This document shows positions 16,639 to 44,722 of a stretch of DNA of 64,000 bases, piece after piece. The DNA comes from Polaromonas sp. Its GTDB lineage: Bacteria; Pseudomonadota; Gammaproteobacteria; Burkholderiales; Burkholderiaceae_C. Positions within the stretch are counted from its first letter, which is position 1. Each line of letters begins with the position of its first letter. The notes under the pieces were generated by a model. It did not search any database, was not told the origin of the DNA, and saw only the letters and a program-made list of their open reading frames with translations. Position numbers and translations under genes: made by a program. The stretch lies in NCBI GenBank assembly GCA_043718065.1, contig JAYSWJ010000086.1:8456-72455 (forward strand), read 5' to 3'.

Positions 16639-16664
16639 AAAAAATACAGTTTCCTGTCAGGAAA
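16639..16664 (-). terminator. Putative terminator of the leftward late operon
   Basis: The palindrome TTTCCTG-T-CAGGAAA (16650-16664) spans the stop codon of the last gene. On the minus strand it is followed by CTGTA + TTTTTT (16639-16644). Confidence 0.4.
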
Positions 16665-16986
16665 TAATTGGCGCATTAGAAATATTGTCGATCAGAGAGG
16701 CTATTAGTGACCCGGAGGCCCATGTCTTAACTATCCTTACTTCCCCAGAGCCTCGTTCAACTATTGTCACAATAGTTGCCTGGTTGGGCTCCGCACAAAG
16801 TGAAGCCCGCGCATCTAATTTTTGTAGATAGCGGCCTAAGGCCGATCTTGAAAGATCTACGATCTTTAAATCTTGAATTAGATCAATCAGATCATCAAGA
16901 TTTAAATGTCTATTTGCTTGAATACACTGATAAATTTTCGCCTTCTTGGCAGAATCCAGCTTGTCTATAGTAGATTTTTGACCCAT
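16657..16986 (-). CDS. Truncated paralog of the DUF3486-type small-terminase N-terminal (HTH) domain
   Basis: 109 aa. The N-terminal ~60 aa align by eye with the ORF at 21222-21788 (MGxKSxI..L...K..I......L..LI.DLQ......LSRSAxGRYxQKL). The C-terminus is unrelated. The gene is visibly AT-richer than the rest of the phage. Confidence 0.55.
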   Translation of the reverse strand: MGQKSTIDKLDSAKKAKIYQCIQANRHLNLDDLIDLIQDLKIVDLSRSALGRYLQKLDARASLCAEPNQATIVTIVERGSGEVRIVKTWASGSLIASLIDNISNAPIIS

Positions 16987-16993
16987 TTTTAAC

Positions 16994-17509
16994 TCACTTT
17001 GTTAAATAGCTCTCGATGATCAAGAGGATGTTGGTTTTGTCGGCAGGGCTGATGCCTAGGAAGGGGCGGGCGGGGATATCGCCCCATAGATGGGGGAATT
17101 GGGACTTGGTGCCGCCAAACTGCTGCATGGCGGCGTATTCCATCGGGCTGCCCACTGAAACTCCGGCTGCGCCCTTTAGCTGGTAGTTGATGGTGGTGGC
17201 TAGGGCGCGGGATTCGCCCGTCAGGGGCTTTTTACCCGCGGTGCGCGCCGCACCTTTCTTACTTAGGCTGCCGTCTTTTTTGAAATTTCCACCCGTTTGG
17301 CCTAAAAATCGGGCGCCGGTGACGGCGCTGTTAGCAGCCCAAGCTGTGCCATCGGGGCTAGTAGCAGAGCTAAAACGACGCTTAGTGGTGTCTACCAAGT
17401 CTTCTCCGATCTCCAGAAAAGCGGGGCGCATGTTTTTGGCACGGCCAATGATCTCGCTTAAACGATCCTGCACCTGCTTGTCGTTGTATTTGACGGTTAC
17501 TGTACTCAT
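16994..17509 (-). CDS. Virion morphogenesis protein (Mu gpG-like)
   Basis: The profile MSTVTVKYNDKQV...MRPAFLEIGEDLVDTTKRRF...DGTAWA matches the phage virion morphogenesis family. It sits after the F-like gene. An alternative start lies at 17548. Confidence 0.8.
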   Translation of the reverse strand: MSTVTVKYNDKQVQDRLSEIIGRAKNMRPAFLEIGEDLVDTTKRRFSSATSPDGTAWAANSAVTGARFLGQTGGNFKKDGSLSKKGAARTAGKKPLTGESRALATTINYQLKGAAGVSVGSPMEYAAMQQFGGTKSQFPHLWGDIPARPFLGISPADKTNILLIIESYLTK

Positions 17510-17513
17510 TTGG

Positions 17514-18305
17514 CTAATTCCCCGCTTTGAATTTTGCGATATCGGCAACCAAAGCTTGAGCGATCGCTTCGGGGTAGCTGATCAGCTTATCTTGCACCAT
17601 CTGGGTTAGCGAGGCCTCTACATTGGCACCAGGTGCATAAGCCCAGCCTTTGTCTATGCCCGCTGGCGCGCCTGTTTTAGAGTCGATGGCGTCCCAGCCT
17701 TCGGGTGGCGCTGTGGCATCGCCCGAAGCAGGCCCGCGTACAGCTTTAATACGGCACTGGCAACCCCAGCCATTGGGCGGGAAGTGGGTGCGCCAAAAAG
17801 GGTGGTCTTTTGGAAGGGTCAGCTTGGAGTCACCCCAGGCCTGGTGCAATGGGCGGGGCGAAAGCACGCTGTCGCTGTGGATGTATTGCCAAAAGGGCCG
17901 CGCGCGCGCCAGATCTGGGTCGTTGAGCTGCGCCCAGCGGCCTGCAGCGTAGCTGGTGGCGATGTTGGTCTGGTAGATCACGCGCGTTCGCCAAGCCTCG
18001 CCTGCCTTAGTGCCTTGGCCGGTCCAGCCCGCCCAGCCGGACTTGCGCACTGCCTGGGCAAAGTCTTTGCGAAACTGGCCTATGCTTCCGCCAGTGACAG
18101 CTTTATCAACCGCCGCGCGCAGGTCGCTAAGCAGGTCGGCTTTTTGGGCACCGGCCACGTAAAACGCTTTGTCGTTAGCCCGAGTTTGAATATCGTCCCA
18201 ACGCTCGGTAGGCAAATTAAGCTTATCGCGGAAAAAGTCGATTTGCTCTTGGAACTGCTGACGCAGGCCGTCTAATTCGATGGCGATATCTTCGGGCGAG
18301 GCCAT
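17514..18305 (-). CDS. Head morphogenesis protein (Mu gpF / SPP1 gp7 family)
   Basis: The C-terminal PNGWGCQCR motif and its position directly after the portal gene support the call. Confidence 0.85.
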   Translation of the reverse strand: MASPEDIAIELDGLRQQFQEQIDFFRDKLNLPTERWDDIQTRANDKAFYVAGAQKADLLSDLRAAVDKAVTGGSIGQFRKDFAQAVRKSGWAGWTGQGTKAGEAWRTRVIYQTNIATSYAAGRWAQLNDPDLARARPFWQYIHSDSVLSPRPLHQAWGDSKLTLPKDHPFWRTHFPPNGWGCQCRIKAVRGPASGDATAPPEGWDAIDSKTGAPAGIDKGWAYAPGANVEASLTQMVQDKLISYPEAIAQALVADIAKFKAGN

Positions 18306-19834
18306 TACACGGCCTTGGCAGTCTCGGAGACCACTGCGTCTAGCCCGGCCAGCTCAGCCGCGGCGAAGGCCAGCGCCATCAGCTCTTGCAACTTGTCGCT
18401 AGGAAGGTTGCCATAGGCGTTGACCAGCTGGTCGCGCAGCGCCTCAATGCTGGGCGCAGCGCTGACCATCTCGGAGATTTGCTGCATCCATTGGGACAGC
18501 ACGAGGTCGCCCGCTTTGTTAATGTTTTCCAAAATAGGGTCGGTGGGTAGCGCTGGTTTGGCTGGGTTGCCCTCGGCAAAGCTGGTGGGTGTCGCTATAG
18601 GTAAAACAGGCGCGGCCAGCGGAGCAGGTGCCAGCTCCCAGCCATCGCCATAGCGCTCACGCACATATTCCAAGGTGGGCTTAAAGCCCAAAGAAGCCAC
18701 GTTCACATCGGTGTCTGACGCGGCCTTGAGGTCTTCAGCCTTTTTGATATCGCGGCTAACCATGCAGGGCGTGAGGCCGTTGTACTCGCAAATCCACTGA
18801 ATCAGGGTGCTATTGAGGGTGTCGCTGAGCAGGTCGGAGTCGGCTTGCACCAGGTCAAGACGCACGTCCTCGCGCTCATTGGCGGCGGCACCGGTTGCGC
18901 CCGTAGTCTGCGTGGCCTCTTGGCTTAATATGACCTCAGAAATCCAGTTGTCCATATAGGCACACAGGTCTTTTTGGGTGCTGATGGAGCCTGTCAGTTT
19001 GCTTTCGAGTAGCTCGATGGACATGCCGTCTGGCGTCATCAGCACGCCGTCGTTGCTCATGGCCTTAAGGGCATCAAATAGCGTGCCCTTTTCCTTCGCG
19101 CCCGCGTTGTTGGGATATTTCCCCCAAGGGGTTGGAGACCCAAAACGATCGTTCAACTTGTTCCAGCTCAAAATACCTTTGCGCTTGAAAAAAACAGGCC
19201 AGTAGAGCTGCAAGCCCAGGCCCGTGCCGTAGGGGTTGTCATCTTCAGGATTAAAACGGTGCACGATGAATTTGCGATCTGGCAGTGGCTCGCCCGTAAG
19301 CATGTTTTGCGCCGTCAGCAGGCGCAGCTCGGGGGCGGCATTCGGGTCGGTCTGTTGGTATACAAAGCGGCGCTGCGCGCGCTTGACAATGCGCACGGGA
19401 ACGATCATGTTTTCTCGGGCAGACCAGACGATTTCTGCGGGCACAAAGCCCAAGATCAATGCATTTAAAAAATCGCTGCAAACCCTGTCAAACATTAGGC
19501 GTTTGAGCATGCCCTGCACGATCTCAGCATCCTTTTGGCCCTGCGGGCCATCCTCTACCGGATCCACTTTCCACGGGCGGCTAATCAGCGCTAACTTGCG
19601 CTTTTGCAAGCCGCTAAAAACCTTGCCGTCGCGCAGCAAGTCTTTGTACAGCTCGTAGCTATTGCCTGCGCTGCCGCGCTCTAAAAGCAAAGGGTCGTTG
19701 GTGCGAATTAGTCCGTTGAACAAGTTTTCAAAAGGGTCACGCAGGCGATTGGCCACCTCGGTGTTGAGCTCAGGCGATGGTGCGGCGCTGCTACCCACGG
19801 CGGTTGATTTAATGATCGTTTTAGAAGTGGCCAT
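18305..19834 (-). CDS. Portal protein (Mu gp29 / DUF935 family)
   Basis: About 509 aa from the ATG at 19834, which shares TAATG with the TerL stop. Size, position and sequence profile fit DUF935 portals. Confidence 0.8.
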   Translation of the reverse strand: MATSKTIIKSTAVGSSAAPSPELNTEVANRLRDPFENLFNGLIRTNDPLLLERGSAGNSYELYKDLLRDGKVFSGLQKRKLALISRPWKVDPVEDGPQGQKDAEIVQGMLKRLMFDRVCSDFLNALILGFVPAEIVWSARENMIVPVRIVKRAQRRFVYQQTDPNAAPELRLLTAQNMLTGEPLPDRKFIVHRFNPEDDNPYGTGLGLQLYWPVFFKRKGILSWNKLNDRFGSPTPWGKYPNNAGAKEKGTLFDALKAMSNDGVLMTPDGMSIELLESKLTGSISTQKDLCAYMDNWISEVILSQEATQTTGATGAAANEREDVRLDLVQADSDLLSDTLNSTLIQWICEYNGLTPCMVSRDIKKAEDLKAASDTDVNVASLGFKPTLEYVRERYGDGWELAPAPLAAPVLPIATPTSFAEGNPAKPALPTDPILENINKAGDLVLSQWMQQISEMVSAAPSIEALRDQLVNAYGNLPSDKLQELMALAFAAAELAGLDAVVSETAKAV

Positions 19835-21222
19835 TACATGAATCCTTGTGCTTCGTAGCCGCGTGGTTGCCCGCTGGAGCGGAACTCTATCGGTGCGCGG
19901 GGGCTGCTGGCGGCTTGCATGGCTAGCGCCAGCGCCCAAAAGTGGTCGGCGTGGCCATCGGGCGTGCTCTCGGCGGTAAATCGGACATTGCCCGTGCTGG
20001 TAACCTGCTTAGTCACGGCGCGCAGGTCGGCGCGAATCTTGGGGTCGTAGGGGATGCGTAGCTTTTTGTCTTCAAAGGCCCCCCGTACCGGGTAGGCCAT
20101 CGCTTCCTTGCTGCGCTGGGTGAAGGTGACGGCTTCTACACGGAATTCGCCAAACTTGTCTTGCGCATCGTCAGCCCAGCCAATGCCTAGGCCAGTGGCA
20201 TCGATGCAAGTGCGGTCGCACTGCTCTATCCACGGCCAAATGATCTTTTCTTGGTCGCTTTTGCGCATGTTTTGCATGCGCTCCACATGGCGGGTGTACA
20301 GCGTGTCGCCCAGCTGTTCAAACACCCAGAGCACGGTTAAATCCTTTTTGCGGCCAATGTCTATGCCTGCGTACAAGGGGCCGTTTTGGCGCTGCTGCCA
20401 GTTGGTGCCGCCCGCATATTCGCAGCCGCCGATCAGGCCGTATTCCAAAAAGGCCACGTCGTCGTCAGCCGGGTTGCACATGTACTCTTGTTGAAAGCTC
20501 TCTTCATCGGCGCAGCCGCTGCGCACGAAGTCAAAGTAGGCCGCCTCGTCCATCGCTTGGCGCTCGTCATCGGCGGGTAGCATCTGTTGCAGTTTGGCTA
20601 AGAAGCCTTGGTCGATAGCGTCTTGCAAAGTGACCCGGTGCAGGCTAATACCTTTGGGGTTTTTATGCTCGCGCACCTCGCGCACCAGTTGGTTAAAAAA
20701 GTTATGGCTACCCCGGTGCGTGCTGATCAGCTCCATGCTGCCGCCCCAGGTAATACCAGGGTAAGCAATCGACCACAGCTTGCGCGGGTCGGGGTGCAAG
20801 GCAAACTCGTCCAAGATGCGGCCGCCACGCTTGCCTGCTTGGGCATCGGGGTTGCTGCTCATGCTGTGGATGCGCTTGCCGCTGTCAAATTGCAGGACGT
20901 AAGCCGTCAAGCGATCTTTGTCGTTAATGACAATCTCGCCTAGGTCTTTGGCCGCTAGATGCATGATGCCTGCCCACATCTTGCAGTCCTCAATGAATAG
21001 CCTGGCCTGCAAATCGTCCCTGCTGCTCACCCACTGGTCAAAGCGTGCGCCCTGGGCGGCGGTGCGCTCGGCGGCGGCGTAGGCGCTGGCCCAGCTCAGG
21101 CCAATCTGGCGCGACTTTTCCATCAGCTTTAAGCGGCTATTGTCGGTAATCCACTTGCTCTGAAACGGCAAGAAAATACCCTCAGAAACCGGGGTTACCT
21201 TGGCGTTGCCCTTGCGCTGCAT
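19834..21222 (-). CDS. Terminase large subunit (Mu gp28-like)
   Basis: 462 aa. It lies between the DUF3486 gene and the portal gene. Acidic nuclease motifs are in the C-terminal half (IDATGLG..., HADHFWALALA). Confidence 0.8.
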   Translation of the reverse strand: MQRKGNAKVTPVSEGIFLPFQSKWITDNSRLKLMEKSRQIGLSWASAYAAAERTAAQGARFDQWVSSRDDLQARLFIEDCKMWAGIMHLAAKDLGEIVINDKDRLTAYVLQFDSGKRIHSMSSNPDAQAGKRGGRILDEFALHPDPRKLWSIAYPGITWGGSMELISTHRGSHNFFNQLVREVREHKNPKGISLHRVTLQDAIDQGFLAKLQQMLPADDERQAMDEAAYFDFVRSGCADEESFQQEYMCNPADDDVAFLEYGLIGGCEYAGGTNWQQRQNGPLYAGIDIGRKKDLTVLWVFEQLGDTLYTRHVERMQNMRKSDQEKIIWPWIEQCDRTCIDATGLGIGWADDAQDKFGEFRVEAVTFTQRSKEAMAYPVRGAFEDKKLRIPYDPKIRADLRAVTKQVTSTGNVRFTAESTPDGHADHFWALALAMQAASSPRAPIEFRSSGQPRGYEAQGFM

Positions 21223-21788
21223 CAGCTAATCCCCAACGCTTCGCGGATCGCCTGCTTCGTGTCCTCGGTCACGCCACCCTTTACGGGCATAGCGCTAAGC
21301 TTGGCGGCTTGCTCTGCCAGTAGCTTTTTACGAGTAGCTTCTTCTACCTCGCCCTGAAACTTTTTGAGGTTGACGCTCGACCGCGTCAGCGTGGCAATGT
21401 TTTTTGCGGCGTTGCTCAGCATACCGATGCGCTCACCTGGCTCCAGGTCTTCATCAGTAGCTTCTTGCAGGTTCAAGATAGCCTCAAATAATTCGGTTTG
21501 TACCAGTGCGGTCAGCGCTTCAGAGCGCGCGTCTTTGTCATCGCCCGCCTGGGCGCTGATCATCTTGGCGGCCTCAGTGCTGGCGCGTATAGCCGACAGT
21601 CGGCGCTCTAGCTTTTGGCCATACCGGCCAATGGCTGATCGGCTGGGTAGCGTGGGGGCTGTCGCTGGAAAGCGCTCTTGCAGGTCGGCGATCAGCTCAT
21701 TAAGTGTGCACGCGCCATTCGCCAGCTGCGCAGTGATGTAACCCTTAACCTCCTCGGGCAGGCGTGCAATAGAGCTTTTGCGGCCCAT
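21222..21788 (-). CDS. Small terminase-like DNA-binding protein (DUF3486, Mu gp27-like)
   Basis: 188 aa with an N-terminal HTH-like segment and a coiled-coil C-terminus. It is immediately upstream of TerL. Confidence 0.7.
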   Translation of the reverse strand: MGRKSSIARLPEEVKGYITAQLANGACTLNELIADLQERFPATAPTLPSRSAIGRYGQKLERRLSAIRASTEAAKMISAQAGDDKDARSEALTALVQTELFEAILNLQEATDEDLEPGERIGMLSNAAKNIATLTRSSVNLKKFQGEVEEATRKKLLAEQAAKLSAMPVKGGVTEDTKQAIREALGIS

Positions 21789-21790
21789 AG

Positions 21791-22111
21791 CTACACCTTG
21801 GGCGGGCGCATGATGCCCGCGTCACAGGTGACTGTGTATTGCACAATGTCAATGCCGTCGCGCGTCAGGTCAACGCTGATTTGGTTCAGTGGATCCACTG
21901 CGATCTTCAGTAGCTCGCGGCTTTCTAGGTAGTCCAGTTCTCGCCGTATCTCTAGCTCGGTGGCATCGGGGTATTCGCCCTGCACAACCTGCAGCAGAAA
22001 ACGCGTAGTTGAATGCACAGGGCGGTTGATTTCAGCCGCTAGCAGTAACACCCAGCGCATAAACTCGCGGCGCGCGCGCTGCGCCTGCAGGCGCATAGTG
22101 TCTTCATTCAT
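21791..22111 (-). CDS. Phage hypothetical protein
   Basis: The ORF is in operon context and codon third-position GC bias is consistent with coding. The start is chosen at the ATG at 22111. Confidence 0.4.
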   Translation of the reverse strand: MNEDTMRLQAQRARREFMRWVLLLAAEINRPVHSTTRFLLQVVQGEYPDATELEIRRELDYLESRELLKIAVDPLNQISVDLTRDGIDIVQYTVTCDAGIMRPPKV

Positions 22112-22451
22112 GGTTCTTTTGGCCTCGTAATAGGATGTTTTCAAAGCGCATGCTCATGGCATCTAGCTTGGCCATGATGGTGGCCACGGCCTGTACATAG
22201 TCCTCGCGCCGCACGTAGTTCAGCGGCAAGTCCGCCTTAAGATTTAAAAACTGCCGCTCTACATCTATCCAGCGGTTAGCCTCTAGCCGCTGCGAGGTCT
22301 CGATCTGATCAAGCCGCTTGGATTGGCTAACAAAGCGGCTGTCGATATGCACTTCGACCTGTTTTAAAAGCAGCTTGCCTGCTGCGAAAACAAAGCCCAA
22401 GAAGGCGATCATAAGTAGCACCGCGTGCCATAGTTCAAGTTGTAATGTCAT
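22104..22451 (-). CDS. Phage membrane protein (single N-terminal TM plus coiled coil; Mu gp25/DUF2730-like)
   Basis: It has the TM segment WHAVLLMIAFLGFVFAAGKLLL and lies between the spanin and packaging genes. Confidence 0.4.
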   Translation of the reverse strand: MTLQLELWHAVLLMIAFLGFVFAAGKLLLKQVEVHIDSRFVSQSKRLDQIETSQRLEANRWIDVERQFLNLKADLPLNYVRREDYVQAVATIMAKLDAMSMRFENILLRGQKNHE

Positions 22452-23113
22452 GGGGCTGTTTTTCGAAAATTAGAAGTGGTCACAAAGTCGATCAAACGTT
22501 GGTGTGCCAGCCGGTTGGCGGCGCAGGTTTTAGCGTTGGCAATGTGGTTGTCCCAGGCATCGTCGACAGTGGCAGTGGTTGCAGCAGCACAGGCGGCAGC
22601 GGTGGGGTTAGTAGCGCTGCAGGCACCGGCGGGCTGGTCTGTACCCGTAAGGGCGCTGTTCCACACCCAGACAGCGCCAGCAGTAAGCACAGGCACACCA
22701 CCAACATCATCGCCAGCGTTGCCCGACCCAAGTTGTTCAGGCGCTGCTGCTGCACGTCCTGGTGCAAGGGCTGGCCCAATAGGTCGCACACCCAAAACAC
22801 TACCAGCGCAAGCCATAGGCCTGCTGGCCACAACCAAAGGGGTATGTTTTCGTACTGCATTAAATTTCTCCGTGAGTTGATTAAACTGTCCTGTCAGCGC
22901 CTGCGCCGAGGCCAGGTAGTCTGCGCTGGCCTTGTGGCCACGGGCTACCTCGCCCTCGTATTGTTTTTGCGCGCCTACCAGCGTGGCGGCTTGCTTGGCC
23001 TGCCACGCCTGCTCGGTATGCTTGCTGCCTTGGCTGTAGCCCAGCGCCAAGGCTGCCAAGATGGCCAGCAGGCCGATCAGCAGCTCACCCGCGATGCTTT
23101 TTATAAAGCTCAT
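22448..23113 (-). CDS. Inner-membrane spanin subunit (Rz-like)
   Basis: It has an N-terminal TM (IAGELLIGLLAILAALALGY) and a coiled-coil periplasmic domain. It follows the endolysin and contains an embedded lipoprotein ORF. Confidence 0.65.
   Translation of the reverse strand: MSFIKSIAGELLIGLLAILAALALGYSQGSKHTEQAWQAKQAATLVGAQKQYEGEVARGHKASADYLASAQALTGQFNQLTEKFNAVRKHTPLVVASRPMACAGSVLGVRPIGPALAPGRAAAAPEQLGSGNAGDDVGGVPVLTAGAVWVWNSALTGTDQPAGACSATNPTAAACAAATTATVDDAWDNHIANAKTCAANRLAHQRLIDFVTTSNFRKTAP
22492..22710 (-). CDS. Outer-membrane spanin lipoprotein (Rz1-like), fully embedded in Rz in another frame
   Basis: The signal plus lipobox is MMLVVCLCLLLALSGC. The mature part is short and proline-rich. 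Confidence 0.65.
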   Translation of the reverse strand: MMLVVCLCLLLALSGCGTAPLRVQTSPPVPAALLTPPLPPVLLQPLPLSTMPGTTTLPTLKPAPPTGWHTNV

Positions 23114-23874
23114 GGCTGCACCACCCCGCCCCAGCTGGCATAGCGCGGCTGCAGTGCACCCAAAATGCGCTGTGGGTAGCCTAAGTTTTCAGCGCAGTGC
23201 AGCTTGGCACGCTGGGCCCAGCCGCAGGCATCATCGGCCTGCTGGCGGGTGGGAAACATACGGTGCGTGCGGCTGGCCACTGCCGCCTCGCGCTTCCAGT
23301 GGCCCAGGCCACCGTTGTAGCTGCGTAGCGCCACCCATAGGCGGTCGTACTCGCTGTAGTGCTGCGGTGCGCGGTCGTACAGCCACTTGTCATAACCCGC
23401 CATGCTGCGCAGCGCCCACACCGGGTTGCTGGGCTGGCACTGGGCTGCGGGCAGCTTTTGCAAGCCGCACCACCAGGTGGCCGTAGCAGGCATAAATTGG
23501 GTTAGCCCGCGTGCACCCACGGGGCTGATGGCGCCAGGGTCCCAGTCGCTTTCCTGGTGCACCTGGGCGGCCATTGCTGCAATGGGTGCGTCTAGCCCCC
23601 ACTGGCTGTGCGCAGCACGCACCAGGTCGGCCCGGTACCGGCTGGCTTGCTGGGGCACATTGGGGCTGATAGCTTGCGCATGCACTGTGCTAGGTGCGCA
23701 CATGGCCAGCAGGCAAGCCGACAGTAGCACCGCTATAGCTACCAGCATGCAGCGTGCAGCGGTACGCAAAGGCTTGCTGTGGGCTGCTTGGTACTGTCGC
23801 AACCGGCTCGCTTCGCGGCTGCGGCAGTAGCCTTGGTACCAGCGCGAAAATGCTACACCGCTCATGCTACGCAC
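23110..23874 (-). CDS. Lytic transglycosylase (SLT domain) endolysin with N-terminal hydrophobic signal/SAR-like segment
   Basis: The catalytic region is QVHQESDWDPGAISPVGARGLTQFMPATA. The N-terminal segment is MLVAIAVLLSACLLAMCA. Confidence 0.8.
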   Translation of the reverse strand: MRSMSGVAFSRWYQGYCRSREASRLRQYQAAHSKPLRTAARCMLVAIAVLLSACLLAMCAPSTVHAQAISPNVPQQASRYRADLVRAAHSQWGLDAPIAAMAAQVHQESDWDPGAISPVGARGLTQFMPATATWWCGLQKLPAAQCQPSNPVWALRSMAGYDKWLYDRAPQHYSEYDRLWVALRSYNGGLGHWKREAAVASRTHRMFPTRQQADDACGWAQRAKLHCAENLGYPQRILGALQPRYASWGGVVQP

Positions 23875-24244
23875 CCAGGCTGACCGCGATCATGGCCGCA
23901 GAGATGATGATCGCACGGCGCAGCATGCAAGCAGCCGCTAGCGATGGCATGGAGCCATCGACCACGGGCGGCGACCACAAGCCATCGCCCACCTCGACAC
24001 CCTTGGGTATATTCAGCGCAGTAGCAGCAATAAAAAAGTGCGGGCGCGCGTAAGGGAACACACTGCGGTCAATCCAGTAGCCCGCTACAGCGGCCAGCGC
24101 CACTAGCGACAGCTTGTACAAGCTCACTGGCAGCTGCTGCGGCGCAATCAAATAGACCAAGATGGCCAATAGCGCAGCGGCCATCAGCCAATCAAACATG
24201 CGCCAAGTCCGTGGTGCTGCGGTGGGGTGGGAAGTTTTGTTCAT
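23867..24244 (-). CDS. Holin-like membrane protein
   Basis: 125 aa from the ATG at 24244 with 2-3 predicted TM segments. It is the first gene of the lysis cassette. The start is supported by the conserved 34-nt spacing to the late dyad. Confidence 0.45.
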   Translation of the reverse strand: MNKTSHPTAAPRTWRMFDWLMAAALLAILVYLIAPQQLPVSLYKLSLVALAAVAGYWIDRSVFPYARPHFFIAATALNIPKGVEVGDGLWSPPVVDGSMPSLAAACMLRRAIIISAAMIAVSLGA

Positions 24245-24278
24245 GCGGCAACTATGCCGCGCGCGCGCGAGGGCAGGC

Positions 24279-24296
24279 AACTAAAGTGCTTTAGTT
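24279..24296 (-). promoter_or_regulatory. Late-promoter dyad copy 1 (AACTAAAGCACTTTAGTT on the minus strand)
   Basis: It lies exactly 34 nt upstream of the holin-like ATG. The same dyad with the same spacing occurs at 36448 and 41650. Confidence 0.5.
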
Positions 24297-25088: not shown

Positions 25089-25096
25089 TGTTGCCT

Positions 25097-25903: not shown

Positions 25904-25922
25904 AAATATTCCTAAAAAAGTG

Positions 25923-25951
25923 TTGACAACACGAACAAACGTGCGTAATAA
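25923..25951 (+). promoter_or_regulatory. Candidate early promoter (TTGACA-17-TAATAA) with embedded inverted repeat CACG-N6-CGTG
   Basis: The hexamers are read directly. It lies 43 nt upstream of the ner-like ATG in the 90-bp divergent region. Confidence 0.5.
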
Positions 25952-25993
25952 TCAAATCCATACAAATAAACCATGTTTATCAAGGCTAAATAA

Positions 25994-34845: not shown

Positions 34846-35322
34846 ATGAACCACATCAAAGCGATCCATACCCTAAAGACCAAACTCAAAATGGCCGACG
34901 GCGACTACCGCGCTTTGCTGCAGGGCCTAACCGGCAAAGACAGCTGCAAAAACATGAACCCGGTCGAGCTGGCCAAGGTGCGGTCGCACTTTGACAACCT
35001 GGCGGTGCGTATGGGGGTTGTTGCTGCCAAGCCTGCCTTTGTGCCTAACCCCAAGTTTACGCGGCAGCGGGCAGTGGGCAAGCGGTCGGACAGCGATGCG
35101 GCTGACGATCGCTGGGCCAAAGCACGCACGCTGTGGACGCAGCTGGCGCAGGCGGGCAAGGTGCAGGTGGATACGGACACTGCGCTGCTGGCTTACGTCA
35201 AGCGCCAAACGCAGCTGGAAGCTTGGCGATTTTTAAACGGCCACCAGATCAACATGGTGGTGGAAAGCTTAAAGCGCTGGGTGGCGCGGCCTGTCACACC
35301 AAGCGAGGTGCAACATGGGTAA
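34846..35322 (+). CDS. gemA: GemA / Mu gp16-like regulatory protein (DUF1018)
   Basis: The segment IKAIHTLKTKLKMADGDYRALLQGLTGKDSCKNMNPVELAKV is the DUF1018 signature. Confidence 0.8.
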   Translation: MNHIKAIHTLKTKLKMADGDYRALLQGLTGKDSCKNMNPVELAKVRSHFDNLAVRMGVVAAKPAFVPNPKFTRQRAVGKRSDSDAADDRWAKARTLWTQLAQAGKVQVDTDTALLAYVKRQTQLEAWRFLNGHQINMVVESLKRWVARPVTPSEVQHG

Positions 35323-35728
35323 TTTTGTCAAACCGGCTGATCTGGCCCCTGTCAACGCCGTGACCGGCCCCGACTTGCCCGAGCTGCTGCGCGAGACTAC
35401 CGAGGTGCTGTACTTACAGCTGGTCGACGAGGAGGAGACCCGGCCCAACGCTGCGCGCTGTACACGCCTGGCCCAGATTGCACTGGCGCAGGTGGTACGC
35501 CTAAGCGAACTGATCGGCGGCACCCAGCCCTACTGGCCCTCAGTCAAGTATTTTGCGCTCACAGCCCGCAACCGCGAGATGTGTGCAGAGTTTCGCGGCG
35601 ACTACACCAAGCTGGCCCGCAAGTACAAACTTAGCGAGATCCAGGTGCGAAACATCATCGACCTGTGGCAAAAAGAAAAGTTCTTAGCACGTCAAAATTC
35701 TTTATTTGCGAATGAGGCAACCCGATGA
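35315..35728 (+). CDS. mor: Mor-family transcriptional activator
   Basis: The C-terminus RNREMCAEFRGDYTKLARKYKLSEIQVRNII is a Mor/C-type HTH. It follows gemA as in Mu. Confidence 0.8.
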   Translation: MGNFVKPADLAPVNAVTGPDLPELLRETTEVLYLQLVDEEETRPNAARCTRLAQIALAQVVRLSELIGGTQPYWPSVKYFALTARNREMCAEFRGDYTKLARKYKLSEIQVRNIIDLWQKEKFLARQNSLFANEATR

Positions 35729-36339
35729 TAGTAAAAGAATTTGATTTGACCATGCGAGTTAATGTGTCAAAAACCGTGACCAAGCCAATATCAGTTTTAC
35801 AAATCGACAACCGTTACTGGATAGACCTCCAAGGTGTATTGGAGGCATTGCACCTTAGTTGGCCGCGCTGGAGTATGTACTTCCGTGGCTGTGCTGATAA
35901 ATTTGGTCTACTGCGCCACGAAGATGCCACGCTAATGGGTACGCTGTTGGTGCTCCCAGAGCGTGTGCCAAGCATTGCGTTACACCTGTATGCACTGCCC
36001 GAGATGGCAGGGCGCTGGACAGTGCGAGCCCGCATTAATGGTATGCACGAGTCGTGGGGCCAGACTTGGTCCACTACAAAATTCCAGCACCTGACGGATG
36101 ACGACATGCTGCCACGTAAAGTTAATGCGGCGCTGGTGCGCGCGCTGCATGCCGATTTGGCTGCGGGTGCAAAAATAGATGATGCAGCCGCTCGGCTCGG
36201 CATCGCGGCCAAGACTGCACGGCGCATTAAGAACGGTAGCTTTCCACTTGACAAGCTGGCGGGCGCTGAATGGTTTAAAACATTTGGCGGTGCCAATGCC
36301 GCTAAAACTCGCAGAACAGGGGTAAGTAGCGATTTTTGA
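35725..36339 (+). CDS. Hypothetical protein; possible antirepressor-type (P22_AR_N-like) N-domain plus C-terminal HTH
   Basis: The N-terminal pattern WIDLQGVLEALHLSW....FG......L.LPERVP resembles phage antirepressor N-domains. The C-terminal DDAAARLGIAAKTARRIKNG is HTH-like. The 5' part is AT-richer. Confidence 0.35.
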   Translation: MIVKEFDLTMRVNVSKTVTKPISVLQIDNRYWIDLQGVLEALHLSWPRWSMYFRGCADKFGLLRHEDATLMGTLLVLPERVPSIALHLYALPEMAGRWTVRARINGMHESWGQTWSTTKFQHLTDDDMLPRKVNAALVRALHADLAAGAKIDDAAARLGIAAKTARRIKNGSFPLDKLAGAEWFKTFGGANAAKTRRTGVSSDF

Positions 36340-36341
36340 AG

Positions 36342-36444
36342 GCTGGTTGTCACCAGCGCCTAAGCGGCGCTCTAAAGCGCCTTAAAGGGGCTTAAAATAA
36401 ATAGCCCGGTTTTGCCACAAAACCACAGCGGCAAAAGCCGCGCC
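36342..36444 (+). terminator. Cluster of short hairpins between the early operon end and the late promoter
   Basis: The hairpins are GCTGGT-tgtc-ACCAGC, AGCGCC-taagc-GGCGCT, GGGCT-N10-AGCCC followed by GGTTTT, and GCGGC-aaaa-GCCGC. Confidence 0.3.
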
Positions 36445-36447
36445 AAA

Positions 36448-36465
36448 AACTAAAACAGTTTAGTT
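36448..36465 (+). promoter_or_regulatory. Late-promoter dyad copy 2 (AACTAAAACAGTTTAGTT)
   Basis: It lies exactly 34 nt upstream of the protease/scaffold ATG at 36500. Confidence 0.5.
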
Positions 36466-36499
36466 ATCACGGCACCGCCATCGGCACGACATTACGTGC

Positions 36500-37570
36500 A
36501 TGGCTTCCAAAACCGCAATCCCACACACCGCAGCGTCGCTGCCAGCGCAAATAGAAATATTCCGCGCTGGCCAGCATACTGACGACGCGGGCGTGGTGCA
36601 CAACTTTAGCGCCGCCGATGTGGCGGGCATGGTAGCCGCCTACCAGCCAGCCTTGCGCGAAGCGCCGCTGACCATTGGCCACCCAGCTGACAACTTGCCC
36701 GCTTATGGCTGGGTCAACAGCTTGGCGGTCAATGCGGCGGGCAACCTGGCCATGAATGTGCACCAGGTGCAGCCGCAGTTTGCCGAGATGGTGGCGGCCA
36801 AGATGTTTAAAAAGCGCAGCGCCAGCTTTTACCCGCCTGGCCACGCCAACAACCCTGCACCCAACGCCTGGTACTTGCGCCACGTGGCCTTTCTCGGTGC
36901 GCAGCCGCCTGCTATTGCGGGCCTGGCTGATTTTGCCGCTGGCAGCGCCGAGGGTGCCGTTAACTTTTCAAGTGGCGATGAGCCTGCTGCAGCGCAATCT
37001 GTGGCTTTGGCTACGCCACCCCTACAACCCGCTGCAGCTGCAGTGCCCCCCGTTTTAACCCAGGAGCAAATCCACATGAGCAAAGAACTGCAAGACAAGC
37101 TTGACGCTATGACTGTCAAGCACGCCGAGACTGAGGCCGCCTTAGCTGCCACAAAGGCCGCTGCCGACACTGCCACTGCCCAGCTAGCCCAGTTTGCCGA
37201 GCAAACCAAAAAAGACCGCACTGCAGGCTTTGTGAGCTTTGCCGAAGGCGTAAAGCCCGAGGTGCTGCTACCTAAAGACCGCCCGATGGTAGTGGCTGCG
37301 TTAGAGGCGCTGGCCGATAGCAAGCCGGTGAGCTTTGCCGAAGGTGGCGCCACCAAGACGGTGTCGCCAGCCGACTGGTTTAAAAGCTTTGTCACCAGCC
37401 GCGCGCCGGTGGTCAGCTTTGGTGAGCACGCCCCCGGTGGCGCGGGCGCAGGCCAGGGTACCGAGGGTATGACCGAGGCAGAGATCGACACCAAGGCCAA
37501 AGTTTATGCCCGCATCAACAAGGTCAGCTACGCCGAAGCGCTGAGCGCGGTGGTGACCTTTAGCGCTTAA
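36500..37570 (+). CDS. Prohead protease / scaffolding protein (Mu gpI / P2 gpO-like)
   Basis: The N-terminus is IEIFRAGQHTDDAGVVHNFSAADVAGMVAAY...LTIGHP. The C-terminal half is an Ala-rich coiled coil. It lies directly upstream of the major capsid gene. Confidence 0.65.
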   Translation: MASKTAIPHTAASLPAQIEIFRAGQHTDDAGVVHNFSAADVAGMVAAYQPALREAPLTIGHPADNLPAYGWVNSLAVNAAGNLAMNVHQVQPQFAEMVAAKMFKKRSASFYPPGHANNPAPNAWYLRHVAFLGAQPPAIAGLADFAAGSAEGAVNFSSGDEPAAAQSVALATPPLQPAAAAVPPVLTQEQIHMSKELQDKLDAMTVKHAETEAALAATKAAADTATAQLAQFAEQTKKDRTAGFVSFAEGVKPEVLLPKDRPMVVAALEALADSKPVSFAEGGATKTVSPADWFKSFVTSRAPVVSFGEHAPGGAGAGQGTEGMTEAEIDTKAKVYARINKVSYAEALSAVVTFSA

Positions 37571-40691: not shown

Positions 40692-41441
40692 ATGGCAGAA
40701 ACCTCTTACTACCCCTACCTTGGCAGCGGCAGAATCTATGCACGAGTGGCTGGCACGGCTACTGGCCGCTTTGACCTGGGCAATGCCAGCAAGCTGGAGA
40801 TCAAGGTCAAGGAAGGCAGAAAGCAGCTCAAAGACTACACCAAGCCGGGCGGCGGCAGCTATGCCAGCGTAGCCCGTGTGGACAGCGCGACGCTGGAGAT
40901 GACGCTGCATGATTTGAATAAAACCAATGTGGCCCGCGCCGTGTTTGGCACTGAGTCAGTCGTCACTGGCGCTGCTGTGTTGGACGAGGTGGTGACAGCC
41001 TACAAAGGCGGCATCAGCACCCTGGCACACCCTGGTGCTACGGCCGTAGTGGTCACCAACAGCGCGGGCACTACCACCTACGTGGCCAACGCCGATTACG
41101 AAGTGCGGCCAGGCGGCATTTTAATTCTGGACGCAGGCACTATTGCCGATGCTGCCAGCCTGAAAGTGGACTACAGCTTTGCCACCTATAACAAGGTAGA
41201 GGCACTGACCAGCGCAGCGCAAACACTAGAGCTTTTCTTTGAAGGCCTTAACGAGGCCAACAGCGGCAAGCCCGTGCTGGTGGACGTGTACCGTGCCCAG
41301 CTAAGCCCCACCAAGGCGCTGGCACTGCTGGGTGATGACTTTGCCGATTTAGAGGTGGAGGCCGAGGTGCTGAAGGACCCTACCAAGACGGGCGTGGGCA
41401 TTAGCCAATATTTCCGTGCGCGACTGGCCACGGCGGCCTAA
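40692..41441 (+). CDS. Major tail (tube) protein, siphovirus type
   Basis: 249 aa with an AGGAG RBS. It is the last gene before the tape-measure gene. No sheath gene is present. Confidence 0.55.
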   Translation: MAETSYYPYLGSGRIYARVAGTATGRFDLGNASKLEIKVKEGRKQLKDYTKPGGGSYASVARVDSATLEMTLHDLNKTNVARAVFGTESVVTGAAVLDEVVTAYKGGISTLAHPGATAVVVTNSAGTTTYVANADYEVRPGGILILDAGTIADAASLKVDYSFATYNKVEALTSAAQTLELFFEGLNEANSGKPVLVDVYRAQLSPTKALALLGDDFADLEVEAEVLKDPTKTGVGISQYFRARLATAA

Positions 41442-41453
41442 AGGCAAGCTAGC

Positions 41454-41481
41454 CCACTGCTGCCTACTTGCGCAGCAGTGG
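41454..41481. terminator. 10-bp hairpin between convergent tail-tube gene and antisense small ORF
   Basis: The stem is CCACTGCTGC / GCAGCAGTGG with an 8-nt loop that contains the small ORF's stop codon. There is no U-tract. Confidence 0.4.
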
Positions 41482-41622
41482 CGCTACCACAGCCCATGCC
41501 AGCACGGCAATAGGGCCCAAAAGGCCTACCAGCACCAGCCAGCCCCAGCCCAGGCTGAGGCCAAAGCTGATGCCGCCCAAGGCGATGCACAGGGCTAGTA
41601 AAAAGGGGTTGGTTTTGCGCAT
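41464..41622 (-). CDS. 52-aa two-TM membrane protein encoded antisense between tail tube and tape measure
   Basis: I translated it by hand: MRKTNPFLLALCIALGGISFGLSLGWGWLVLVGLLGPIAVLAWAVVAPLLRK. It shows strong third-position GC bias. A TATAGT -10 ends 6 nt before the ATG. Confidence 0.5.
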   Translation of the reverse strand: MRKTNPFLLALCIALGGISFGLSLGWGWLVLVGLLGPIAVLAWAVVAPLLRK

Positions 41623-41649
41623 AGCCGCACTATACCGCAAGCCCCCAAA

Positions 41650-41667
41650 AATTGAAATTGTTTAGTT
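41650..41667 (+). promoter_or_regulatory. Late-promoter dyad copy 3 (AATTGAAATTGTTTAGTT, imperfect left half)
   Basis: It lies exactly 34 nt upstream of the tape-measure ATG at 41702. It overlaps the -35 region of the divergent small-ORF promoter. Confidence 0.45.
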
Positions 41668-41701
41668 CGCCCCCCGCGCGTGCCCGAGGCACATTAGCGG
41701 C

Positions 41702-44700
41702 ATGGGTAACGAATACAAAGTCCAAGTCGATGTCACGGCAGACACTGCGCAAGCGGCGTCTAACGTGGGCACGCTTAAACGTGGCTTTGATGATGCGGGC
41801 GTGGGCGCGGCCAATTTACAAGGCAAGGCGACAGGGGCAGGCCAGAGCCTCAACCAAGTAGGCCAGGCGGGCGAGACGGCCACCGCAGGCCTTGGCAAGA
41901 CGCGCGCAGGCTTGGTCAGCATCTCTGAGCAGTTGTCCCTCGCCAAGACGCAGTTTGGGGCCTTTATCGCCGCGCAACTGGGTTTATCGACCGTCAAGCA
42001 AGTCGGTCAGATTGCCGACGACTACAAAAACCTAGAGGCCCGCATCAGGCTGGCCACCGGCGCAGGTGCCAACTTCACTACCGGTTTTGAAGGCGTGGTG
42101 GAAATCGCCAAGCGCACCAACTCGAATTTAGAAAACACCGGCAACTTGTTTGCCAAACTCACCGAGACAGGCAAGAGCGCGGGCCTGAGCACACAATCTG
42201 CCATCGCCCAATCGTTGCGCTTGACCGAGACGATCAACCAAGCGGTACAACTGTCGGGTGCCAGCGCGGGCGCGTCCAGCGCCGCCATCACGCAATTGAT
42301 CCAGGGCTTGCAGTCGGGCGTATTACGTGGCGATGAATTTAACTCTGTCATGGAGCAGGCACCGCGCCTGGCCAAAGCGCTGTCTGATGGCCTGGGTGTG
42401 ACCACGGGCGAGCTGCGCAAGATGGCTGAGGCGGGGTCGCTTAGTAGCGAGACGGTGATCAATGCGCTGAAAGGCCAGTCTGACACTTTAAAAAATGAAT
42501 TCGCCACACTGCCCGCTACGGTGGGCCGTGCAGTCGAGAACTTGAGCACAAGCTGGTCTGTGTACATTGGCCAGGCAGACAAAGCCAGCGGGGCCAGCGG
42601 TGCGGCAGCCAGCGCCATCAATGGTCTAGCCAACAACCTGCAAACGGTAGCCGGCTACCTGATAGACGCTGGCCAGGCTGTGGCGGGCTTTACCGCATTG
42701 CGGCTGGCACAAACGTTCTTGGGCATTGGCGCAGCAGCTGCGCAATCAGCCGTAGGTACCGCTGCCAGCACTACGGCAACGGTGACCAATACCATAGCGC
42801 ACACTGCCAATGCCGCTGCCGCGGGGCGTGAAGCGCTGGCGTTTAAAGCGCTGGCCGCAGACGTGGCCACGCAAGCTGCAGCGCTAGGCGGCAACACGGC
42901 CGCAACGGCTGCCAACACGGCGGCCAAAACCGCCAGTGGTGCTGCTGCCGATGTAGCCTCTGCAGGCATAGGCCGCTTTGCTGCTGTGCTGAGCACGCTG
43001 CGCACCTTCACGCTGATCGGCCTGATCACCAACTTTAAAGACATTGGTACGTTTATCGGCGAAGGTATTGCCAAGCTGCAGGGCTACAAAGACAAAACCG
43101 AGGAGTTGGCCCGCGCCGACAAGCTGGCCACAGAGATTGCCAAAGACAACCTGCTGCAGCGCGAGCGCATGGACGGCCTGCTGAAAGCCAATATTGAAAA
43201 GCAGTTTGAGCTGTCAGCGGCTGCGCGCACCAGCCTGGGCGAATTTACCAAACTGACCAAAGAAGGCTCTAGCGCGGCTGAGGCGATTGGCAAAATAGGC
43301 AAAGACTTTGACCTGTCGAACGCGCCTGGCATCAAGAACGCCACGGCTGTACTCGACAAGCTGCTGGCCGATGGCAAGCTGACGGCCAGCGAGTTTCAAA
43401 AGGCATGGGCTGATGCGCTGAAGGGCGCTGACCTGGCGGTGTTTGAAACCCAGGCCCGCGCTGCGCTGTCGGGTACCGCCCGCGAGGCAGAGCGGCTAGC
43501 CCAGGTGATGGAGGCCACCCTGCGCGAAGCCGTGAAACGCACCGGGCTTGACTTTGCGGTCATCAGCGGCGGCATGGGCGCTGCAGCGCGCAGCGCCATC
43601 AACGACACCGAGTCGATTGTCAAGGGCTTGGATAGCCTAAAAAAACAAGGCGTCGACACCGCCCAAGTGTTAACGGCTAGCATTGGCAAAAGCATTGCGA
43701 CCGCAGACAGTGCAAAAGCGATTGAAACGGTCAAGCAGCAGATCGAGAGCCTGCGTAAGACTCTGGGTGACAAGTTGACCGATGGCCTGCTAGACCAAGC
43801 CACTGCCAAGGCCAAAGAACTGACTGCTGCGCTAGACGGTATCAAGCCCGGCATCAACAGCGTGGCTGAGGCCATTAAGACGCTAGGCATCACCAGCGAT
43901 GAATCGCTTAAGAAGACAGCTGCTACCAGCGTAGAGGCGTATGAGACCTTGCGCCAGTCGGGTACCAGCAGCGCGCGCGAGCTGGGTGCTGCGTTTGCCA
44001 GGGCCGCGGACGATGCCATTAAAGCCAACAACGGCATAGCCCCCAGCTGGGTGCAAGCCCAAGCCGGCGCACGCGGCTACGAGCTGGCCGCTGACGATGC
44101 AGGCAAAACGACAGTGCGCGCGATGGGCGCTGCAGGCACCTCCGTAGACGGGCTGCGCACCAAGGTGCAGGCCGCTACGGTAGACTTTGAAAAGCAAGCT
44201 GCAGCACTGGATGTGATCAACAGCAAATACGGCCAAGGAAAAGCCGATCGCGATTTTAAAACTGCTGCTGTTGGCTCGGGCAATGGGTCGGTCACGGGTG
44301 CTAACCGCGACCAACGCCTGGCTGGCCAAAACGCCGTAGACAACAGCCTGATATTTAAGCTGAAAGAAAAATCAGCCAAGGGCACGCTGACCGAGAAAGA
44401 CGCTGACGATCTGCGCAACGTGATTGCCGCGCTAGACCAAAACGAGCAGGTGTTTCGCGACCTAGACCGCTACAACCCAGCCGGCATATCTACCGAGGGC
44501 ACCCGCTCACGCAATGAAAACCGCGTCACGCGCCGACTTTTTTCTGACAGGTTAAACAGTTTTGACGGGGGCGGCGGGGCTGAGTTTGCCAAGGAAGCAC
44601 CTAGCCGCGTCGTCAACATCAATCTGCGCGCGCCCGATGGCAGCTTGCAAACCGTGCAGACCAATGACGCAGGCGCAGCAGCGCTGATTAAAACCCTGCA

Positions 44701-44722
44701 AAACGCAAAGCTGGCCGCATGA
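41702..44722 (+). CDS. Tail tape measure protein
   Basis: 1006 aa, Ala-rich and helical, with the tape-measure motif VLRGDEFNSVMEQAPRLAKALSDGLGVTTGELRKMAEAG. Confidence 0.85.
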   Translation: MGNEYKVQVDVTADTAQAASNVGTLKRGFDDAGVGAANLQGKATGAGQSLNQVGQAGETATAGLGKTRAGLVSISEQLSLAKTQFGAFIAAQLGLSTVKQVGQIADDYKNLEARIRLATGAGANFTTGFEGVVEIAKRTNSNLENTGNLFAKLTETGKSAGLSTQSAIAQSLRLTETINQAVQLSGASAGASSAAITQLIQGLQSGVLRGDEFNSVMEQAPRLAKALSDGLGVTTGELRKMAEAGSLSSETVINALKGQSDTLKNEFATLPATVGRAVENLSTSWSVYIGQADKASGASGAAASAINGLANNLQTVAGYLIDAGQAVAGFTALRLAQTFLGIGAAAAQSAVGTAASTTATVTNTIAHTANAAAAGREALAFKALAADVATQAAALGGNTAATAANTAAKTASGAAADVASAGIGRFAAVLSTLRTFTLIGLITNFKDIGTFIGEGIAKLQGYKDKTEELARADKLATEIAKDNLLQRERMDGLLKANIEKQFELSAAARTSLGEFTKLTKEGSSAAEAIGKIGKDFDLSNAPGIKNATAVLDKLLADGKLTASEFQKAWADALKGADLAVFETQARAALSGTAREAERLAQVMEATLREAVKRTGLDFAVISGGMGAAARSAINDTESIVKGLDSLKKQGVDTAQVLTASIGKSIATADSAKAIETVKQQIESLRKTLGDKLTDGLLDQATAKAKELTAALDGIKPGINSVAEAIKTLGITSDESLKKTAATSVEAYETLRQSGTSSARELGAAFARAADDAIKANNGIAPSWVQAQAGARGYELAADDAGKTTVRAMGAAGTSVDGLRTKVQAATVDFEKQAAALDVINSKYGQGKADRDFKTAAVGSGNGSVTGANRDQRLAGQNAVDNSLIFKLKEKSAKGTLTEKDADDLRNVIAALDQNEQVFRDLDRYNPAGISTEGTRSRNENRVTRRLFSDRLNSFDGGGGAEFAKEAPSRVVNINLRAPDGSLQTVQTNDAGAAALIKTLQNAKLAA

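Follow-up and report, generated by a model that had tools for sequence, protein, structure and literature searches.

Three late transcription units of a Mu-like prophage, beginning with the holin, the protease/scaffold and the tape-measure gene, are each preceded by an 18-bp dyad that ends exactly 34 nt 5′ of the first ATG, with a −10-like hexamer at the same place in every spacer. We propose that these sites are late promoters dependent on the phage's Mor homolog and that the late mRNAs begin on the ATG itself, which we consider the best explanation of the arrangement as a whole and probably the correct one. From their sequence, the sites are very likely late promoters of the Mor/C type, and leaderless late transcripts are the best reading of the geometry together with its conservation, a reading that is well supported but unproven. 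While Mor/C-type late control is of a known kind, the inverted repeat that brackets the hexamer is new here.

Three matching sites in a Mu-like prophage

The window, that is, the whole 64-kb stretch of DNA analysed, holds an ∼40-kb Mu-like siphovirus prophage between ispF and an ABC transporter gene, with inverted GAGATA-type repeats close to both prophage ends (for coordinates, see Table 1). A megablast search with 24.5 kb against GenBank phages gave no match, and a protein search returned distant cultured relatives only (at most 54% identity over the protease domain). A repressor operon, headed by an HTH-S24 gene and continuing with DUF4124 and Excalibur-domain genes, runs leftward and ends at 24295, touching dyad 1, with the stop codon of the Excalibur-domain gene overlapping the first bases of the dyad. 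On the other side of the repressor gene, a strong early promoter points rightward, and the rightward early genes encode a transposase, MuB, GemA, Mor and, last, a 204-aa protein without assigned function; the Mor gene is thus second to last in its operon. The rightward late part follows in the order dyad 2, protease/scaffold, major capsid and so on to the major tail protein, dyad 3, tape measure and distal tail genes. Measured against the Mu gene order, the lysis-to-G module is turned around, and dyad 1 lies at its border. No terminator was predicted on the plus strand from the early operon to dyad 2, nor any from the repressor operon to dyad 1.

Table 1. Features of the prophage and its surroundings, in window coordinates
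Feature	Coordinates	Strand	Description
ispF	15608-16126		left neighbor of the prophage
Leftward late operon	16657..24244	-	holin, SLT endolysin, Rz-like spanin, lipoprotein, gp27 small terminase, large terminase, Mu portal, MuF, G-like protein
Holin ORF	ATG 24244	-	125 aa, PF13272
Inverted repeat GCGGCA-TAGT-TGCCGC	24245..24260	-	around the holin hexamer; last base adjoins the ATG
−10-like hexamer CATAGT	24251..24256	-	22 nt past dyad 1, 6 nt short of the ATG
Dyad 1 AACTAAAGCACTTTAGTT	24279..24296	-	predicted Mor site, lysis/packaging late promoter; 34 nt to ATG 24244
HTH-S24 repressor	25097-25903	-	heads the leftward repressor operon
Early promoter	25923-25952	+	strong, rightward
Mor/C-family activator gene	35315..35728	+	Pfam Mor PF08765, E 1e-13; phrog_532 'late transcriptional activator'
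204-aa gene	35725-36339	+	no assigned function
Dyad 2 AACTAAAACAGTTTAGTT	36448..36465	+	predicted Mor site, head/tail late promoter; 34 nt to ATG 36500
Inverted repeat GCACG-ACATTA-CGTGC	36484-36499	+	with GCCAU/AUGGC extension, 36477..36504, includes the start codon
−10-like hexamer GACATT	36488..36493	+	family consensus GACAGT
Protease/scaffold gene	36500..37570	+	356 aa, head maturation protease phrog_976
Scaffold internal start	AGGAG 37062-37066, ATG 37076	+	inside the protease gene; invariant M193
Dyad 3 AATTGAAATTGTTTAGTT	41650..41667	+	predicted Mor site 5′ of the tape-measure gene; 34 nt to ATG 41702
−10-like hexamer CACATT	41690..41695	+	5′ of the tape-measure gene
Tape-measure gene	41702..44722	+	1006 aa, PF20155; first gene of the third late unit
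ABC transporter gene	57124-57888		right neighbor of the prophage

Rereading the positions bore out the original prediction that the dyad stands exactly 34 nt from the ATG of three late units, the reading frames that open there being 125, 356 and 1006 aa long. In all three spacers the hexamer occupies positions 23-28, leaving 6 nt before the ATG, and is of the xAxAxT type (A at position 2, T at position 6). The spacers had been described as dissimilar but for a weak −10; the alignment of the hexamer stood in all three sites, while the rest needs amending in that the hexamer is a conserved GACAGT-type element and the spacers carry a covarying inverted repeat. As a −10, the hexamer is poor, which counts against our reading.

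The dyad appears specific to the three sites: AAYTRAAN4TTTAGTT matches nowhere else in the 64-kb window, with 0 matches expected from shuffles, a uniqueness test that is partly circular because the pattern was built from the sites themselves. Allowing three mismatches added one match, at 53008, which lies within an ORF and is at chance level, and a half-site scan of the window returned no further site with a fitting left arm. Neither of these scans placed a dyad near the repressor/early-promoter region at 25.9 kb. Scanning for sigma-70 promoters gave no −35/−10 pair at any of the three sites, and Rfam had no match in the window.

A Shine-Dalgarno sequence at usable distance is absent before all three ATGs, the GAGG at −16 of the tape-measure gene being too distant to count as one, while AAGGA or AGGAG is present 5′ of the major capsid, major tail and some other genes of the phage. 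The contrast drawn by the original prediction is therefore there to be seen; however, weak ribosome-binding sites are common among the genes of this phage, so that the lack of a Shine-Dalgarno sequence is not distinctive by itself.

The identical spacing had also been taken to back the choice of start codons, and the relatives lend this further weight. Close relatives keep the 34 nt at the protease site despite changes in the spacer and the first codons, and so do the 91-94% relatives at the tape-measure site, where spacer and first codons again differ. For the protease, dyad 2 contains an in-frame TAG, and the stretch 5′ of the conserved LPAQIEIF block offers no other start codon, leaving ATG 36500 as the only possible canonical start. 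For the holin, the L149 locus carries the same dyad (AACTAAAGCGCTTTAGTT) at the same 34 nt from an ATG, which begins a holin of 125 aa whose N-terminus (MNTSKPPLLQRLPRLSGW) lacks an internal Met; holin homologs in general have an N-terminal extension ahead of the conserved PR(M/L)xxW motif. On this comparison, the holin start is likely ATG 24244, and M16 could be a second one.

The tape-measure site differs in its reach. Relatives at or below about 70% protease identity lack it and have an ordinary ribosome-binding site in its place; the tape-measure dyad is a recent addition in the lineage of the window. The 34-nt spacing, whose conservation in related prophages the original prediction had proposed to check, is kept in close relatives; most relatives have 35 nt, and the tape-measure site is found only in the closest.

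The predicted protease promoter in relatives and the inverted repeat at its hexamer

Protease alignment yielded 81 loci which, together with four close relatives, gave 54 distinct upstream regions (43-94% protease identity); the relatives come from Burkholderiales metagenome bins. The protease gene is preceded by dyad, hexamer and ATG in every one of the 54. The sequence of the dyad changes from clade to clade, examples being AACTAAA-N4-TTTAGTT, AACTGAA-N4-TTCAGTT, AATGAAGCGCTTCATT, ACTGAC-N6-GTCATT and TGTGG...CCATT. The hexamer has the consensus GACAGT, with A4 in 46 of the 54, A2 in 53 and T6 in all, the latter two counts being partly circular in that the register was picked among four offsets by a score rewarding A2 and T6.

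The spacing is held more tightly than the sequence of the dyad. Measured to the hexamer, the start point being predicted, the distance from the dyad centre to the hexamer start is 31.5 bp in 41/54 relatives and at 3/3 window sites. The gap from hexamer to ATG is 6 nt in 16 and 7 nt in 38 of the relatives, with an ATG at this fixed distance at 54/54 protease starts and again at the three window sites. The longer gap allows a 1-nt leader. Immediately before the ATG, the base is C or T in 53/54 relatives, matching the usual pyrimidine-purine preference of start sites, as would be expected if transcription began there. By these comparisons, the predicted promoter layout is common to a large uncultured clade of betaproteobacterial Mu-like phages. 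An exact-dyad scan of IMG/VR returned mostly unrelated AT-rich viral contigs, the relevant GC-rich loci being L143, L149 and L165 only.

We propose the following course of events. Mor made from the early operon would bind each dyad, centred 43.5 bp upstream of the start point, and recruit host sigma-70 RNA polymerase to the weak GACAGT-type −10, which has no −35 partner. Transcription would then start 7 nt past the hexamer, on the A of the ATG, and the genes that head the late units (holin, full-length protease, tape measure) would be read from leaderless mRNAs, with the downstream late genes relying on ribosome-binding sites of their own.

Other promoter readings of the same elements were considered and rejected. 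A sigma-54 promoter (GG-N10-GC) at the hexamer is, by eye, off in its spacing by 3 nt and would place the start within the gene. The left half-dyad (TTGAAA or TTGACG in certain clades) stands 32 nt away from the hexamer and so is too distant to be its −35, and the right half-dyad as a −10 is variable between clades, unlike the GACAGT element.

The second conserved feature of the spacers is a short GC-rich inverted repeat which brackets the hexamer and ends 0-2 nt 5′ of the ATG; the 6-7 nt past the hexamer are part of its GC-rich arm. The arms vary by clade (TCGCAA/TTGCGA, CTGCC/GGCAG, GCCGCA/TGCGGC), and in the close relatives L202 and L205 both arms have changed in a compensatory way, to GCCCG/CGGGC, when compared with the protease repeat of the window. 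Since the stem takes up different registers to the hexamer in different clades, stems were counted per sequence and against three kinds of control. A perfect stem of at least 5 bp abutting the ATG is present in 38-41% of protease promoters, versus 4.8% of shuffles, 10.5% of chimeras and 0-7% of the ribosome-binding-site-led MCP, MTP, MuB and GemA starts at the same loci. Roughly half of the relatives have a weak stem or none. The protease helix of the window can be extended over the AUG (z = −2.4), and the folds at the other two sites are unexceptional on their own, the hairpin of the tape-measure site being weak. Tolerating G-T pairs lengthens the stems more than tolerating A-C pairs does, which hints at the sense RNA as the molecule that folds.

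The 5′ arm of the helix is placed upstream of, or within, the hexamer, and consequently only an RNA begun further upstream can fold it; by the same geometry, transcripts from the predicted late promoters would not contain this arm. Read-through RNA from the repressor or early operons would fold the GC-rich repeat, which would probably mask the start codon there. Were only Mor-initiated transcripts then translated, the choice of promoter would gate translation of the first late gene: leaderless Mor transcripts would be read, while the AUG of read-through RNA would be helix-buried and lack a ribosome-binding site. We offer this gating tentatively, as a possibility that falls short of being probable. 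If true, it could allow the lysis and head modules to sit directly behind constitutive or early operons without terminators, and could explain why the lysis/packaging arm is placed behind the repressor gene. It would also suggest an insulation device that might be reused in synthetic circuits.

The covarying repeat implies that a longer, leadered RNA also crosses the sites, and this RNA could be the one that is translated. The promoters would then still depend on Mor, with the first genes being translated mainly from longer transcripts with a hairpin leader, by Shine-Dalgarno-independent initiation at an internal AUG, and with the fixed distance between hexamer and ATG belonging to an RNA element. 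The ATG-adjacent repeat indeed behaves like an RNA helix in its compensatory changes and in its preference for G-T over A-C pairs on the sense strand, and read-through RNA should exist given the missing terminators before dyads 1 and 2. However, initiation would be hindered by a stem reaching up to or over the AUG, and the unconserved register of the stem relative to the hexamer speaks against a specific recognition structure. Starts that are ATG only, together with the pyrimidine at −1, fit a transcription start instead, and the distance between hexamer and dyad is held even where the gene lies 35-60 nt away and has a ribosome-binding site. Thus, we consider translation from the longer transcripts unlikely.

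The last of these points comes from loci in which dyad-N22-hexamer precedes leadered genes with a ribosome-binding site, often with GTG or TTG starts, such as the holin genes of L023, L212, L223 and L227. In L023 and L077 the module is followed by ∼35 nt, TGAGGA and a TTG start, and in L212 by ∼40 nt, AGGAG and a GTG start. The module of L223 and L227 is followed by an intrinsic terminator, a ribosome-binding site and the holin ATG, and the predicted promoter sits inside the 5′ arm of that terminator. Since the module also occurs 5′ of leadered genes, the hexamer travels with the dyad independently of the ATG, which argues that the two act like a promoter rather than as an RNA element bound to the start codon.

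The candidate activator

The activator to which we assign the dyads aligns with Mu C in PDB entries 9l0x (E 8.5e-5) and 9vw8. That the phage has a single Mor/C-family gene, as the original prediction held, agrees with an hmmsearch of the window (profile from 45 relatives, E ≤ 10), in which its ORF was the sole match. Likewise, exactly one Mor-family ORF was detected in the 6.5 kb upstream in 48 of the 54 relatives; four of the six relatives without a match have the canonical gene order, in which mor would be further upstream.

Recognition-helix residues of Mor covary with half-site bases (mutual information, permutation p<0.002), several residue-base pairs having a higher mutual information than all 500 permutations. 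The half-site TTTAG is paired with (Q/R)VR in the recognition helix and TTTAC with RI(D/E/Y), and at the third half-site position T goes with a hydrophobic residue and C with R, N or S. These statistics ignore shared ancestry, and we take the covariation as supportive of a tie between Mor and the dyad, short of decisive. The matched pairs of recognition-helix variants and likely half-sites may also be useful for specificity studies, given the structures of Mor/C with RNA polymerase.

The same data bear on the idea that a regulator other than Mor, be it the HTH-S24 repressor, the 204-aa protein or a host factor, binds the dyad as an operator or as another kind of activator site. Dyad symmetry would suit any dimeric DNA-binding protein, and the 204-aa gene sits between mor and dyad 2. 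Yet a homolog of the 204-aa protein was found by tblastn in only 1 of 80 viral-contig relatives, as against a universal dyad, and the repressor/early-promoter region has no dyad. It is the Mor helix whose residues track the half-site bases, and the position of the dyad relative to the hexamer is that of the Mu C/Mor site. We therefore regard a non-Mor regulator as very improbable. As for the 204-aa gene itself, the close relatives L202-L204 carry an ORF of 193 aa in its position and L205 does not.

Finally, that the dyads are structural or recombination elements (RNA hairpins, terminators, or inversion crossovers that moved the lysis/packaging module to the left) is scarcely credible even though arm changes preserve symmetry (AACTAAA/TTTAGTT vs AACTGAA/TTCAGTT) and dyad 1 borders the inverted lysis-to-G module, because the arms of several dyads are asymmetric and would not pair (L031 and L001 have C-C or G-G mismatches), the AT-rich stem lacks a U-tract, relatives with canonical Mu order share the dyad-hexamer-ATG arrangement before the protease gene, and flipping the segment from dyad 1 to dyad 2 fails, as inferred from the map, to restore the Mu order.

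Relation to Mu and other phages

The model for Mor-dependent late promoters is Mu itself. There, the site bound by C and by Mor is an imperfect dyad of 16 bp with its centre at −43.5, and late promoters possess a −10 but lack a −35 (PMC2582627, PMC4390567), in line with the position near −43.5 on which the original prediction had relied. In the Mu oligonucleotides of PMC4461284, which extend 20 nt beyond the mapped start and from which we read the distances, the 16-bp dyad is followed by 23 nt and then by the hexamers TAGACT (Plys), CAAACT (PI) or TATCCT (PP). Late transcription of Mu starts 7-8 nt past the hexamer (PMC4461284, PMC2582627). The 18-bp dyad plus 22 nt of the window is equivalent to the 16-bp dyad plus 23 nt of Mu, and the seventh base past the window hexamers, or the eighth in relatives with the 7-nt gap, is the A of the ATG.

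The likeness extends to the parts and to their placement. Both systems have a Mor/C-family activator, an imperfect dyad of 16-18 bp and an xAxAxT-type −10 with the −35 absent; dyads 1 and 2 are positioned as Plys and PI are in Mu, i.e., at the lysis genes and at the protease gene, gene I in Mu. As with Mu Z, the scaffold has its own start inside the protease gene. We note that the three leaderless candidates encode proteins required in low quantity, and that the abundant scaffold has a separate start with a ribosome-binding site.

The differences from Mu are equally clear. Mu uses a two-step cascade from Mor to C, whereas a single activator is present here, and the dyad sequence is not the same. 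At PI, the Mu transcript starts ∼27 nt 5′ of the gene I ATG and has an AGGA ribosome-binding site; here, the ATG stands at the predicted start. It is the tape-measure gene, and not a baseplate gene, that has the third promoter in front of it, the lysis/packaging operon occupies the left arm on the opposite strand, and a covarying inverted repeat surrounds the −10. If our reading is true, the Mor/C paradigm would be widened from a two-step to a one-step cascade.

A literature search for leaderless mRNAs in Mu-like phages returned no paper. In proteobacteria, translation without a leader is as a rule inefficient, which counts against our reading. Leaderless phage mRNAs include lambda cI transcribed from PRM and that of P2 gene V, with which an activator-dependent late operon begins; the activators, CI in lambda and Ogr in P2, belong to other families than Mor. 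The predicted late mRNAs would share with these a 5′-terminal AUG without a ribosome-binding site. Lambda cI and P2 V are single genes, whereas here all recognizable late units, and the protease unit clade-wide, are predicted to be leaderless. Should 5′-end mapping confirm this, the recognized late units of a proteobacterial temperate phage would begin leaderless, which is unusual for proteobacteria.

For the inverted repeat, the closest parallel is T4, in which a hairpin contains the late promoters of e, soc, 49 and I-TevI and keeps read-through early transcripts from being translated (PMC3014915). As in T4, the predicted late promoter is located in or beside the 5′ arm of what would be a helix over the initiation region, one of the targets is a lysis gene, and the inhibitory structure would be missing only from transcripts of the late promoter, the same logic as that of the promoter within a terminator in L223 and L227. 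The T4 late transcripts differ in that they keep a leader with a Shine-Dalgarno sequence and come from a promoter read by gp55; here no leader is predicted, and the effect of the helix is deduced from the sequence.

Practical use may be made of the layout. Read as a sequence rule (clade-specific dyad, 22 nt, xAxAxT, 6-7 nt, ATG), it may find late promoters and the correct start codons in uncultured Mu-like prophages, where gene callers may misplace such starts. The nearest cultured relatives are BcepMu and B3-like Pseudomonas phages such as JBD67; these transposable Mu-like phages encode a homologous protease and, unlike the window, have the canonical gene order. Their protease genes are preceded by a GC-rich stem around an xAxxxT hexamer, with an ATG 7 nt on; in BcepMu, the distance between the hexamer and the dyad closest to it is 2 bp longer. 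For both phages, the records annotate protease starts other than this post-hexamer ATG.

Inverted repeats at the late starts

Compensatory changes were seen in the inverted repeat that surrounds the hexamer (the -10-like element between the predicted Mor dyad and the start codon) and lies beside the ATG, both in the window and in relatives L001-L081 and L202-L205, and the hexamer-bracketing repeat was enriched more than 5-fold over three kinds of control. Judged from its sequence, the repeat may form a helix that hides the start codon in read-through RNA. A similar arrangement is found upstream of the protease gene in BcepMu and JBD67, two cultured, distant relatives, where an xAxxxT hexamer sits inside a GC stem and the ATG follows 7 nt later. 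The annotated protease starts lie elsewhere in these records, at an ATG 12 nt upstream in BcepMu and a TTG 60 nt upstream in JBD67.

Features in the window and in related phage loci
Feature	Location	Strand	Remark
GC stem, hexamer and ATG before BcepMu protease gene	L274, NC_005882, 2432-2490		CGCCC-GATGAT-GGGCG-cc-ATG
GC stem, hexamer and ATG before JBD67 protease gene	L275, NC_042135, 2424-2490		GCCGCC-TCACTCTG-GGCGGC-ATG
GC-rich inverted repeat, holin site	window 24245-24260	-	encloses hexamer, adjoins ATG
GC-rich inverted repeat, protease site	window 36477-36504	+	encloses hexamer, adjoins ATG
Dyad-hexamer module and terminator upstream of holin genes	L223, ~3050-3180; L227, L228, L214-L219, L224
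DUF4124 gene and Excalibur calcium-binding domain gene	window 24295-25118	-	accessory, repressor strand
Second in-frame Met of holin ORF, codon 16	window 24199-24244	-	directly precedes first transmembrane segment
204-aa ORF	window 35725-36339	+	between mor and late promoter
Two hairpins	window 36407-36445		just 5' of dyad 2
Internal AGGAG and ATG in protease gene	window 37062-37078		ATG is invariant Met193
Gap, major tail protein gene to tape-measure gene	window 41441-41702		only 260 nt
Inverted GAGATA / TATCTC(GC) repeats	window 16560-16595 and 56830-56900		near both prophage ends
Regions compared for layout	window 16657-26238 vs 26685-56546

Arrangement upstream of the holin gene

In loci L223, L227, L228, L214-L219 and L224, a strong intrinsic terminator comes directly after a Mor-type dyad-hexamer module, and an RBS and the holin ATG come next. 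The predicted transcription start falls within the 5' arm of this terminator's stem, and RNA from that promoter would therefore escape termination. In the window, the DUF4124 and Excalibur genes come after the repressor, in the same orientation, and reach the first base of dyad 1, the predicted Mor site of the holin gene; no terminator was predicted between them and the holin gene. Within the holin ORF itself, the Met at codon 16 could be part of a dual-start holin/antiholin motif.

Surroundings of the protease and tape-measure genes

The hairpins beside dyad 2, the predicted Mor site of the protease gene, look like intrinsic terminators on the minus strand only, where TGTGGTTTTG comes after GCGGC-TTTT-GCCGC; on the plus strand, their A-rich side could act as an UP-like element. 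The internal start at Met193 gives a nested scaffold protein, a counterpart of Mu Z and BcepMu gp33. The 204-aa ORF had no match in Pfam or PHROG. Of 80 viral-contig relatives searched by tblastn, only 1 had a homologue, at a different position; the close relatives L202-L204 carry a 193-aa ORF at the corresponding position. No tail-assembly chaperone (G/GT) genes were recognizable in the gap before the tape-measure gene, and in close relatives a 52-aa ORF is called on the minus strand of this same gap.

Prophage ends and genome layouts

The repeats near the two ends of the prophage probably serve as binding sites for the transposase, and the insertion point is flanked by ispDF on one side and an ABC transporter operon on the other. 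Two layouts occur in the clade, with the lysis-terminase-portal-MuF-G module either inverted in the left arm or in canonical Mu order. Canonical order was seen in six loci (L012, L023, L024, L041, L062 and L077), where the lysis-to-G module follows the early region and precedes the protease gene. Most members, the window included, have the inverted left arm, behind the repressor, and this arm was confirmed by the single-contig locus pairs L060/L207, L021/L213 and L054/L229.
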